The notes under the pieces are model-generated. The model was given only the letters and a program-made list of their open reading frames with translations, made no database searches and was not told the DNA's origin. DNA of 40,026 bases, taken from assembly GCA_045805065.1 (NCBI GenBank), contig JBJMMA010000247.1, positions 1 to 40,026 of the forward strand, written 5' to 3'. Each line of letters opens with the position of its first letter. Position 1 is the stretch's first letter. This document shows positions 26,861 to 29,356 of this stretch, piece by piece. This DNA is from Bdellovibrionia bacterium. GTDB taxonomy: Bacteria > Bdellovibrionota > UBA1018. The position numbers and the translations under genes were made by a program.

Positions 26861-29356
26861 TTAATTCAATTTTTCCGTAAGAGCCCCGGAGATACAAGTG
26901 CCAGAAGATACGCGCACAGACTCTCCCCATAAAAAAGCCTCGCGAAGTCTTTGCACTGTAGGCCGCTGACCATCCATCACCCGCCGAAGCTCAGGATGAT
27001 TGGTCCAGTGAGGGTGGAGTGCGAACAAGATCATGATGTCTTCATCCGCCGTCCGCCGCTTAATCAGCTTCTCAACCCACTCTGGGTGGTTGGCCGAGTG
27101 AGGCTGGGTAAGAACATGCTTTGCAATCGCCACATCCAGATCAAAGTTATTCTTCTCGAGCAAGTGCTCAACCCATTCAGGGTGATTCGCCCAATGAGGC
27201 TGGGAAAGCACGTAGGTAGCGATCTGTCGGTCAGCGGTGTTCTTTTTCAAAATACGCTCGACCCACTCCGGATGATCTTTCCAATGAGGTTGGGACAAGA
27301 CAGAGCCCGCGATCGAAGCATCGACTGTTCCCTTATCCAGAAGGTGCTCGACCCAATCGGATCGATGCTGCCAACATGGCTGGGACAAAACATGGAAGGC
27401 GATATCTTTATCAGAGGTCCCCTTCTTTAAAAGTCTCTCAATGAACTCAGGATGATCCTTCCAGTGCTCTTTACCTAGAGCACTCAATAGTAAGTAATAA
27501 TCTAGGTTTCCCTTATCCAAATAATGCTTCACCCACTCAGGATGATTCTTCCAATGCTCCTTGGAGAGAACGTCTGAAATGATCGCAATGTTGGTTTGCA
27601 TCTCATCCTTTTTCAAAAAGTGCTCAACAAGCTCAGGGTGATTTCTCCATCGGGACTGGGACAGCACTCTATGGATGAACATATGATCCCCGGTGCCTTT
27701 TTTCAAAACCGCGTCGACCACTTTTGGACGCTGAATGGCTACATCAAGATCAAACCATTCCCATAGAGCCGTCGACTGATTCAGGTTAGGAGAATGTTCA
27801 ATTTCGGACAGGACAAGCCCCTCGATTTCATTCCACTCTCTTTCGCTTAACGTGTGAAATTTGGCCGACATGCGCCTTTTAAACTTCTCCATGATCCCCC
27901 GATCACCTGCCTCGAGCTTGATCTGACCCGTTGTCAGCATTCTAAAATATTCGACCGGGCCGATAGTGAGGCTTTCCGGAATCACTCTTAATGCTGCTTT
28001 GTTTTTAACGATGACAAAGCTTTCCTCTGGCACGCGAATGAAGTCCTCTCCCTCGCGCGCATTTGGATCAAGATGAAAACGAATGGTGAGCCCTGTCCCC
28101 TTTGCGCCTTTTGTGCCCACTCTTGTATAGAAGCCGTCGCCAAATGCAGCTGCTTCGCCGTGGCCGTTTTCACGAGAAGTCAGAACGTTGGGATCTCCCG
28201 TGTGAGCCCGCGTGATGCTTTCGTAGGCCAGGAAGTTATTTGTTTCATGAGCGACAACATCAAGGCCGAGCTCGCGAGCGGTTTTTCCGTTGCCCTTGCC
28301 CACGGCCTGAGTTCGCAATGGCTCTTTATTCATCCACCAGGAAAGTGACTCCACCGTCTGCATGTCATCTTTAATCGACGATAGCTTTTTCCTGAGGCCC
28401 AATTTCTCAAGCGTGTTCCATGCGTACTCGATGTTGACGGCATTTTGAAAAAGCTTCTTGCCGTTTTTTTCTATCCATTTTGCGACGTACTCGTTTTTTG
28501 AGTCTCGTGCGGGATCAAATTCATCGATTACTTTTTTGATGCGAGCAAGGTCCTCAGGCCTGATCTTGAGCTCATATTGAAATGCCTTTGTAAGAAATCG
28601 GATCGCAGAAAGGATCGGCGGATTACGGCCTTCTTTTGCAAACTTTGTCGTCTTGTGAAGCGAAGAGAAATAATAATGAAGCGCGCCATCGTGAACGTCT
28701 TTGAGAAACTGCGGCTCTTTCGATTTCCAGTCTCTCACGTCTCTGACCACAGAATCACCCGCGCGTGGTCTTGTGATCTCGACCAATCCCGTCGAGTTGG
28801 AGTCCGTGTGTTGATTCATGAAGTCGGGGTTATTCAAGATGGCTTGCTTATCGCCCATGTCTTGAGTCAGCAAGCGCACTTCCCATGCGGTCTTTCCGCC
28901 CTGAAGATGCGGATATCTTTCCTGGAGCGCTGTTTGAAGCTTTTGGGCTTGATCGGCATTGCCGTCGATCACGATATCTAAGTCCTGTGTGGAGCGATAG
29001 ATATTGGTGTAGTCGTAATCAAACCGATCCTTTTGAAATCGCTTGTCACCTTTCTCGCGCTGCATGTCCCATTTTACATAATGGGCATATCCCGCAGCTG
29101 TTCCGCCAAAGAGCCAAGCCCTCACTCCGAGTCTTGCAGCTTCCTGCTCAATGAACTTAAACTCTTCGACTCGCTTCAGACGATCCGCAATACCTTGCTC
29201 CAGCTCCTGGATGGTTGGAACCGCCTCTGATTGAGAAGACGCAGTGAGTCCAGTGGAGGCAGCCTGTGCAAAGGGAGGCAACCCAAACGCTTGTTGACCT
29301 GCGACGAGTAAGCTCAATGAGACAAAAGCTGAAACACTCTTCCTAAGGGCTCTCAT
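26861..29356 (-). CDS. secreted NTase-like + ART-like + ~30-aa repeat protein (paralogue 4)
   Basis: Signal peptide; WLFGG..DLD..E; ILSAIRF; AHET..GDGFY; about 8 VLSQPHW..HPEW repeats; ATGA overlap. Confidence 0.7.
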   Translation of the reverse strand: MRALRKSVSAFVSLSLLVAGQQAFGLPPFAQAASTGLTASSQSEAVPTIQELEQGIADRLKRVEEFKFIEQEAARLGVRAWLFGGTAAGYAHYVKWDMQREKGDKRFQKDRFDYDYTNIYRSTQDLDIVIDGNADQAQKLQTALQERYPHLQGGKTAWEVRLLTQDMGDKQAILNNPDFMNQHTDSNSTGLVEITRPRAGDSVVRDVRDWKSKEPQFLKDVHDGALHYYFSSLHKTTKFAKEGRNPPILSAIRFLTKAFQYELKIRPEDLARIKKVIDEFDPARDSKNEYVAKWIEKNGKKLFQNAVNIEYAWNTLEKLGLRKKLSSIKDDMQTVESLSWWMNKEPLRTQAVGKGNGKTARELGLDVVAHETNNFLAYESITRAHTGDPNVLTSRENGHGEAAAFGDGFYTRVGTKGAKGTGLTIRFHLDPNAREGEDFIRVPEESFVIVKNKAALRVIPESLTIGPVEYFRMLTTGQIKLEAGDRGIMEKFKRRMSAKFHTLSEREWNEIEGLVLSEIEHSPNLNQSTALWEWFDLDVAIQRPKVVDAVLKKGTGDHMFIHRVLSQSRWRNHPELVEHFLKKDEMQTNIAIISDVLSKEHWKNHPEWVKHYLDKGNLDYYLLLSALGKEHWKDHPEFIERLLKKGTSDKDIAFHVLSQPCWQHRSDWVEHLLDKGTVDASIAGSVLSQPHWKDHPEWVERILKKNTADRQIATYVLSQPHWANHPEWVEHLLEKNNFDLDVAIAKHVLTQPHSANHPEWVEKLIKRRTADEDIMILFALHPHWTNHPELRRVMDGQRPTVQRLREAFLWGESVRVSSGTCISGALTEKLN

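Follow-up and report, generated by a model that had tools for sequence, protein, structure and literature searches.

A divergent class II nucleotidyltransferase domain paired with a predicted ADP-ribosyltransferase domain in putatively exported tandem paralogues of a Bdellovibrionia bacterium

We analysed a stretch of 40,026 nucleotides from a Bdellovibrionia bacterium (contig JBJMMA010000247.1 of assembly GCA_045805065.1; the whole stretch is called the window below), in which four tandem paralogues on the minus strand each encode a nucleotidyltransferase (NTase) domain followed by a predicted ADP-ribosyltransferase (ART) domain. Judged from sequence and structural model, the NTase domain is most readily interpreted as an active Pol-beta transferase, and the complete proteins as exported two-enzyme multidomain effectors that combine a divergent class II NTase with a minimal H-Y-D ART, a full reading to which we assign a probability of about 0.5. 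Class II NTases are housekeeping enzymes of tRNA and RNA 3′ ends. Here the class II catalytic core carries an apparently rebuilt specificity pocket, is fused to an ART domain, bears sequence signs of export and is matched 27 times in a genome of 4.2 Mb. The combination of NTase and ART seems to represent a family of enzymes, hitherto undescribed, that would be directed at other cells.

The structure of residues 45–500 of paralogue 1 was modelled with AlphaFold2 from 43 sequences. The model was confident (predicted local distance difference test score, pLDDT, 91.3; predicted template modelling score, pTM, 0.90), and the only high-scoring matches to its residues 9–300 were CCA-adding, A-adding and poly(A) polymerase enzymes of class II. 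In a Foldseek comparison with the PDB, the 12 matches listed of the 13 with E ≤ 1e-3 were all class II CCA-adding or A-adding enzymes, followed by E. coli-type poly(A) polymerase and TENT5/FAM46. Re-alignment with VIA gave 3h39_A as the best match (Z 11.4, root-mean-square deviation (rmsd) 4.1 Å, 208 residues aligned, model residues 9–282). In a Foldseek-independent structure search of 48,161 chains, all seven chains with Z ≥ 8 were class II enzymes (4wby_A 11.2, 3h37_A 10.9, 3wfo_A 10.3, 1miv_A 10.0, 3aql_A 9.6, 1ou5_A 8.4, 9kma_A 8.1); lower down, TENT5B scored 7.3 and an isolated CCA head domain 7.2, and no other Pol-beta NTase exceeded 5.2. An earlier note on this DNA had proposed a CCA/poly(A)-polymerase-like domain and named an unrelated best fold as one result that would overturn it; the best matches all came from the class II enzymes just named, and the fold assignment survives. 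That description holds for the head and neck (28325..29212, minus strand, residues 49–344 of paralogue 1 from the model and the Foldseek and VIA matches; this takes in 28400–29200, which translation places at residues 53–319), but the earlier note missed that they form one half of a putatively exported NTase–ART module.

Alignment of the four paralogues recovered in full the motif series that had been claimed for them: GV(R/K)AWLFGG, QDLDIVI, WEVRLL, DFMNQHTDSNST, DVH(D/E)G.LHY, F.(K/R)EGRNPPILSAIR(F/Y)LTK and (I/L)RPEDL follow one another in this one order in 4/4 copies. Conservation was counted over 258 distinct sequences, five remote relatives (25–31% identity) included, with about 252–256 sequences aligned per column. 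The GG of motif A (G84 and G85; 29102..29107, on the minus strand like every feature of the paralogues given here) aligned with the GG of a CCA-enzyme profile and was G in 252/252 sequences at each position. The DLD catalytic carboxylates (D125 and D127; 28976..28984) aligned with the DxD of the profile and, like Q124, were invariant (253/253). The third carboxylate, E159 (28880..28882), aligned with the E in the corresponding strand of the profile; position 159 was E in 241 and D in 13 of 254 sequences, and the neighbouring W158 was kept in 253/254. All three sets of coordinates, and those of DSNS below, were checked by translation, and the claim that GG, DxD and E are kept holds column for column. 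Further along, the invariant polar cluster DSNS (D185–S188; 28793..28804) is a candidate counterpart of motif B, its equivalence to RRD being drawn from strand order only. Q182, D185, S188 and G190 were each found in 254/254 sequences, S186 in 249/254, D206 (of VRD) in 248/255, H234 in 255/255, N245 in 255/256, and R253 and K257 in 254/256. Conservation to this extent goes well beyond coincidence.

These counts bear on whether the domain is a catalytically dead scaffold that retains the fold alone. The loss of the canonical specificity motifs would suit such a scaffold, but strong purifying selection has kept all metal ligands and a further polar set unchanged across about 253 sequences, and we consider it highly improbable. 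An NTase fold with a competent catalytic centre is, in our judgement, very probable.

We then compared the family profile by hhalign with a profile of CCA-type enzymes from 30 Bdellovibrionota genomes. This profile–profile check, which the earlier note had suggested, gave no significant score (probability 3.5–4.2%, E 0.01–0.012), although the local alignment was collinear. It placed GVRAWLFGG on the CCA GG strand, RSTQDLDIVIDG on the DxD strand, WEVRLL on the third-carboxylate strand, DVHDGAL on the DxxxG motif and ILSAIRF on the neck helix after EDxxR, with an insertion of about 27 residues between the GG helix and DxD relative to the CCA profile. Alignment of the family with one single CCA enzyme gave nothing useful, and global mode against the 30-enzyme profile also failed; when the segment from the third carboxylate to the neck was aligned by itself, DxxxG alone was recovered and no counterpart of RRD.

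The RRD of motif B and the EDxxR of motif D are absent from the family, as had been proposed. Two residues are candidates for the RRD counterpart: D185 (HTD) by strand order and D206 (VRD) by the low-confidence hhalign path. In the model, D185 opens the strand that follows the carboxylate strand, which fits the order of strands in CCA enzymes; the proposed pairing of RRD with HTD is favoured by this position, whereas the hhalign path favours VRD. Opposite EDxxR, the low-confidence hhalign alignment set the stretch E-G-R-N-P-P, in agreement with the proposal that the template faces RNPP. The same alignment, at low confidence, puts RNPPILSAIRFLTK (28586..28627), the first neck helix, at the position of motif D (EDxxR...RF), and the coordinates of RNPP..K were also confirmed by translation. 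Conserved residues of the motif D region are limited to N245, P246, R253 and K257.

Set beside the class II CCA-adding, A-adding and PAP I enzymes (PF01743; 3H39, 4WBY, 1VFG, 1MIV, 3AQL), the domain shares the head and neck fold (Z 11.2–11.4 over about 208 residues) and carries GG, DxD and the third carboxylate in the same order on the same secondary-structure elements, with DxxxG and the first neck helix collinear. Unlike them, the family has no Pfam match, no RRD, no EDxxR and no body or tail, has the insertion between GG and DxD, and its proteins, exported by sequence signs, carry an ART domain as fusion partner and occur in many copies. Seven remote relatives had no PolyA_pol match at E ≤ 0.1 and nothing significant in Pfam or NCBIfam for the module; the genuine CCA-type enzyme of the genome scores 124 bits with PolyA_pol. 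We class the domain as a new family within the class II NTase fold and not as a CCA enzyme: it does not match the profile of the CCA-type family, and motif B, motif D and the domains that hold tRNA are all missing. The TENT5/FAM46 non-canonical poly(A) polymerases (6JYJ, 7CQZ), which are eukaryotic and cytoplasmic, have a similar arrangement of NTase and helical domains (Z 7.0–7.6), and their match is clearly weaker than that of the class II bacterial enzymes.

The structural neighbours also bear on the kind of product. The NTase might make a nucleotide signal or product, of the cGAS/CD-NTase kind or as an adduct derived from nicotinamide adenine dinucleotide (NAD+) together with the ART domain, and not modify a macromolecule at all. 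Both domains would use nucleotide cofactors and are packed rigidly (pTM 0.90), and a rebuilt pocket could fit two nucleotides. However, the nearest folds are primer-extending class II enzymes and not CD-NTases; moreover, the proteins appear to be exported, and no sensor or effector partner is conserved nearby in 77 loci. We regard signal synthesis as very unlikely. The 50 matches listed from two of the structure comparisons included no CD-NTase, though a list of top matches could miss this family.

Directly behind the NTase, residues 345–470 of paralogue 1 (27947..28324) form a minimal ART-fold domain, as indicated by the domain model, structure search and conservation. Folded alone, it reached a pLDDT of 88.4. 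Its search against the 48,161 chains placed toxins like diphtheria toxin, PARPs or Tpt1/KptA in 18 of the 20 best ranks, with 7k7b_A as the best match (Z 5.9, rmsd 3.9, 97 residues aligned); DarT, MbcT, RES, ParT and Rhs ART toxins came at lower ranks. Four residues of the putative active site are invariant or nearly so, namely H370 (253/253), R395 (251/252), Y410 (252/252) and D438 (251/251), and S394 and E401 are invariant as well (251–253 of 251–253). In the available part of its description (PMC3482391), the Tox-ART-HYD1 signature is H,[RK],[FY],[DE]; H370, R395, Y410 and D438 fit it, with their assignment to strands drawn from DSSP. Tox-ART-HYD1 (PF15633) was also the sole Pfam match for the domain, in 1/43 members and below the cut-off (E 0.016, 16.3 bits against 25). 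Atlas feature matches of 0.86–0.88 to PARP, HYD1, Arr and ExoA (exotoxin A) clusters serve as leads only. The modest Z together with the conserved signature suggests that residues 345–470 adopt an ART fold that is HYD1-like by signature and fold. With Tox-ART-HYD1 and the H-Y-[ED] clade (diphtheria toxin, PARPs, Tpt1/KptA, Arr), the domain shares the ART fold and the H/R/Y/D signature. In contrast to Tox-ART-HYD1, it is internal, behind the NTase, and not C-terminal in a polymorphic toxin of RHS/PAAR type, and no immunity gene was found.

A pair of antibiotic-inactivating enzymes, with Arr-like ADP-ribosylation and ANT-like adenylylation of small molecules, was considered as well. The ART domain is of Arr size, with an Atlas feature match of 0.87 to the Arr-ms cluster, and ANT(4′) turns up at Z 4.1. 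Class II NTases match far better than ANTs, however (Z 11 against 4), export would separate the enzymes from ATP and NAD+, and 27 copies with large repeat domains are unlike resistance enzymes; we judge this explanation extremely improbable.

The proteins look exported. Paralogue 1 begins with a Sec-type signal peptide (29282..29356, residues 1–25, read by eye from the sequence). A leader of 15–100 residues precedes the module in 219 of the 233 relatives with an aligned module start, and 191 of these 219 leaders match a crude signal-peptide pattern. At the other end, variable helical repeats (26957..27721; an HP[EQ]W-type unit at a spacing of about 30–35 residues, delimited by motif spacings) lead into a C-terminal tail with a single conserved Cys 11 residues from the end (26864..26956). 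Ank_5 matched the repeats weakly and under the cut-off (E 3e-4). The C-terminal halves of 33/39 long relatives had no Pfam family at E ≤ 1e-4, and a few relatives carry FGE-sulfatase (C-lectin-like) or HEAT_2 domains in their C-terminal part. RasGEF, PTS_EIIA_2 and RapZ_C labels on three relatives (P0068, P0069, P0072) were rejected; they are short partial matches, no stretch of which passes alone, and are probably artefacts of the helical repeats, not eukaryote-like domains.

A Cys lies within the last 25 residues of 205/238 relatives, against about 6% expected (Cys makes up 0.26% of their residues), and in 18/21 members of the own genome against 0.8 expected. It mostly stands 5–17 residues from the end, most commonly 11, and is followed by a short amphipathic stretch; the remote NTase-only relatives have leaders and the same Cys tail too. 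By eye, a tail of small residue, Cys, about 10 amphipathic residues and end was also seen in about 20 otherwise unrelated, mostly signal-peptide-bearing open reading frames (ORFs) of the genome, among them the upstream 697-residue gene with its tail at 37120–37200 on the minus strand (contigs C1, C12, C38, C51, C64, C78, C82, C121, C126, C143, C158, C180, C202, C209 and C246 of G000). A genome-wide count found no general enrichment of a C-terminal Cys (422/2,769 ORFs against 14.8% expected), and low-Cys ORFs showed a 2.6–3-fold excess of Cys tails, with or without a start resembling a signal peptide, an excess that is biased by the selection of the set.

Cys-containing C-terminal tags are known from other bacteria. 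In the available parts of the reports on MYXO-CTERM-type tags, which are handled by CPBP/Rce1-like myxosortases (bioRxiv 10.1101/2023.06.07.544157, PMC11980579), the features shared with our family are export and one Cys near the C-terminus. Unlike those tags, as far as the available parts of the sources define them, the tail here has no transmembrane helix and no Arg cluster after the Cys, and its roughly 5–17 residues are too short for a membrane helix. No NCBIfam sorting signal matched the family proteins. With neither the transmembrane helix nor the Arg cluster of known Cys sorting tags, the tail may represent an as yet undescribed signal for sorting, lipidation or anchoring; it may additionally mark an undescribed route of export or anchoring. 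CPBP proteases are present in the genome. One gene for an Rce1-like CPBP intramembrane protease (type II CAAX prenyl endopeptidase family) lies in the window at 19689–20537 (minus strand), 6 kb from the array; in myxobacteria, Rce1-like/CPBP proteases process Cys-containing C-terminal tags, according to the available part of one preprint (bioRxiv 10.1101/2023.06.07.544157).

The tail raises the alternative that these are surface-displayed or envelope proteins anchored by the C-terminal Cys, for prey recognition or adhesion, with the enzyme working at contact or on leaked nucleotides. The signal peptide and Cys tail resemble the Cys-containing sorting tags in the part of that preprint available to us (bioRxiv 10.1101/2023.06.07.544157), the C-termini vary as those of recognition proteins do, and the window holds the protease gene just described. 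Against this, the tail has neither the transmembrane segment nor the Arg cluster by which those tags are defined, as far as that part goes, and strictly kept NTP- and NAD-type sites are ill-suited to a place where the substrates are absent. Surface anchoring is accordingly a rather unlikely explanation.

Nucleoside triphosphates (NTPs) and NAD+ are found only inside cells. Because both sites are strictly conserved and the protein is apparently exported, action inside another cell is the preferred reading, and that these are exported effectors acting on another cell we rate at even odds. In the proposed mechanism, G84–G85, D125, D127 and E159 would hold an NTP and two metal ions, as the GG loop and three carboxylates of class II enzymes do, and a nucleoside monophosphate (NMP) would be moved to an acceptor hydroxyl. 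Q182, D185-S-x-S, H234, N245, R253 and K257 would replace RRD and EDxxR in a rebuilt nucleotide or acceptor pocket, and such a pocket would have a specificity unlike CCA or A addition. The NTase–ART module of about 450 residues is conserved as a single unit, with the ART domain packed against the NTase in the model. Once delivered into a cell of prey or host, the proteins would act there, and the variable C-terminal part would pick the target or the entry route. Three observations are in line with effectors against non-kin targets: no immunity gene was found, paralogues are numerous, and the binding-type C-termini are hypervariable. Likewise, for an exported toxin that needs no cognate immunity protein, the lack of a conserved neighbour in 77 loci is as expected.

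With regard to the acceptor, an RNA or tRNA 3′ end, and hence tailing toxicity of the MenT kind, is our leading guess by analogy and a tentative one, because the close structural relatives of the domain without exception lengthen RNA at the 3′ end and tRNA-tailing NTase toxins exist. In the available parts of two reports (PMC7450476, PMC10435456), MenT (DUF1814/AbiEii) NTase toxins extend tRNA acceptor ends and so block the tRNA. MenT offers a possible working analogy only, as a Pol-beta-type NTase that serves as a toxin by adding nucleotides to tRNA; it belongs to another NTase family, is cytoplasmic and comes with a cognate antitoxin, whereas the proteins here appear exported and have no conserved neighbour. 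DUF1814/AbiEii matched at E 0.044 in only 1/43 members.

As a different possibility, the NTase might attach one NMP to a side chain of a protein or to a small molecule (of AMPylation or UMPylation type), with the ART domain acting on the same or a second target and the repeats binding a protein target. This would account for the loss of the RNA-binding body and tail and of the base-template EDxxR, for C-terminal parts made of protein-binding-type repeats (HEAT_2 and FGE-sulfatase/C-lectin-like in relatives) and for the near-neutral charge. The structural neighbours with Z ≥ 7, however, all act on RNA 3′ ends, and class II-type NTases are not known to modify proteins; we consider this possibility unlikely.

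Several results weigh against the reading of the proteins as exported NTase–ART effectors. For the NTase half, no Pfam or NCBIfam family matched the module at E ≤ 1 in the four paralogues, phmmer and family-profile searches of PDB sequences returned chance matches only, and with an hhalign probability of just 3.5–4.2% against the CCA-type profile, no sequence method ties the domain to PolyA_pol. CCA enzymes bind tRNA with body and tail domains that have no counterpart here, where model residues 305–420 match an ART fold instead. The module is near-neutral (median pI 6.6–6.7), which gives no pointer to RNA binding, charge and pI being uninformative overall. For the ART half, the fold Z scores of at most 5.9 are under the level that the tool calls safe, and Foldseek with the ART domain alone gave no match at E ≤ 1e-3. 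For delivery, neither machinery nor a target was found, and the Cys tail could instead signal anchoring on the producer's own surface.

A bolder and doubtful form of the effector reading is that the NTase–ART pair is a composite warhead of an unrecognised class of predator or symbiont effectors, which would travel by a route defined by leader and Cys tail, inflict a new RNA or protein lesion and be retargeted by the repeats across dozens of paralogues. One such lesion might be ADP-ribosylation of RNA ends coupled with non-templated nucleotide addition. If the proteins are effectors, they would be a concrete candidate for how Bdellovibrio-type bacteria disable other cells and would bring new chemistry to the CCA-enzyme fold.

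The size and range of the family were assessed with the 456-residue module (P0121) as query, and the taxonomic range reported reaches no further than the samples that were searched. At least 468 proteins in 90% clusters matched, all unnamed or called hypothetical except for a few automatic names; at 50% identity there were at least 654 representatives, 472 of them with E ≤ 1e-30 and nearly always over the whole module. In the own genome, 19 of the 27 matches span almost the whole module at 64–100% identity. The family was carried by 12 of 201 sampled genomes of the phylum (the own included), usually in multiple copies. All 76 loci returned from a species-level genome collection came from uncultured Bdellovibrionota-type metagenome-assembled genomes, labelled Bacteriovoracaceae, Pseudobdellovibrionaceae, Bdellovibrionales, Oligoflexia or with the older names 'Deltaproteobacteria' and 'Proteobacteria'. 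Across 77 loci there was no conserved neighbour, the commonest flanking gene family occurring in 7, and no cognate immunity or partner gene was found within 6 kb. A literature search, which did not cover the supplements of cited papers, found no description of the NTase–ART fusion or the family.

The two domains can occur separately, as NTase-only proteins (loci L034, L035 and L037) and mostly-ART proteins (L003 and L036) indicate. At L034 of a distant genome (G103:C27:6500-23500), three NTase-only relatives of 1146–1228 residues flank an ORF of 1525 residues that encodes several AAA+ domains together with an M41 peptidase of FtsH type, and a fourth NTase-only relative of that genome lies on a separate contig (L035). 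Another protein, P0221 (2327 residues), consists of an AAA+/M41 part, then the NTase–ART module and then an FGE-sulfatase domain. From these arrangements, a link of the NTase family to an unfoldase/protease partner is possible; the available part of the FtsH ternary-system paper (PMC7159879) gives no account of this NTase.

In the window, the ORF list and translation gave five co-oriented, overlapping ORFs on the minus strand, spanning 26861–39213, of which four are the tandem paralogues. Paralogue 1 (26861..29356, 831 residues) consists of signal peptide, NTase head and neck, ART domain, helical repeats and Cys tail, as defined by translation and paralogue alignment, and the same architecture is found in paralogue 2 (29353..32271, 972 residues as the longest ORF, overlapping paralogue 1 by 4 bases), paralogue 3 (32235..34841, 868 residues) and paralogue 4 (34838..37162, 774 residues as the longest ORF). 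The database version of paralogue 2 (P0006) has 938 residues and starts 34 residues downstream of the longest-ORF start (32170–32271, minus strand). This start would leave paralogue 2 without a signal peptide, and a start at Met12/13 would give a normal leader like those of the other copies.

The paralogues are 78–81% identical over residues ~50–500 and far more diverged elsewhere in the four-copy alignment. By region, amino-acid identity among the four copies was 88–94% in the head, 77–84% in the neck, 71–76% in the next domain and 36–46% in the C-terminal repeats. In the head, 47–71% of the four-fold degenerate sites nevertheless differ among the copies, the pair of paralogues 1 and 2 standing apart at only 30%. 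On this sequence comparison, the four copies are old and the conservation of the head reflects purifying selection, not recent copying. The low value for paralogues 1 and 2 was observed in the head tracts 28757–29224 and 31654–32121 (minus strand) and suggests either a later duplication or a gene-conversion tract confined to the head. The tandem-repeat finder detected no DNA tandem-repeat arrays in 26800–37200.

The fifth ORF (37120..39213, minus strand, 697 residues) lies upstream and overlaps paralogue 4 at its start; its own N-terminus resembles a signal peptide, and it ends in a Cys tail of the same kind. It matched no Pfam or NCBIfam family. Its homologues adjoin family members at two further loci of the 77 examined, and it is probably in the same operon as the paralogues. 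Directly downstream of paralogue 1 lies a gene for a cupredoxin-like exported protein (25989–26930, minus strand; Pfam Cupredoxin_1, E 4.9e-10), and because a terminator-like hairpin (26012–25991) follows it, the operon may stop there. Promoter-like and terminator-like sites in the window showed no excess over the shuffled expectation. The other genes of the window that flank the array are ordinary chromosomal genes, encoding enolase, thiolase, a TypA/BipA-like protein and LysR regulators.

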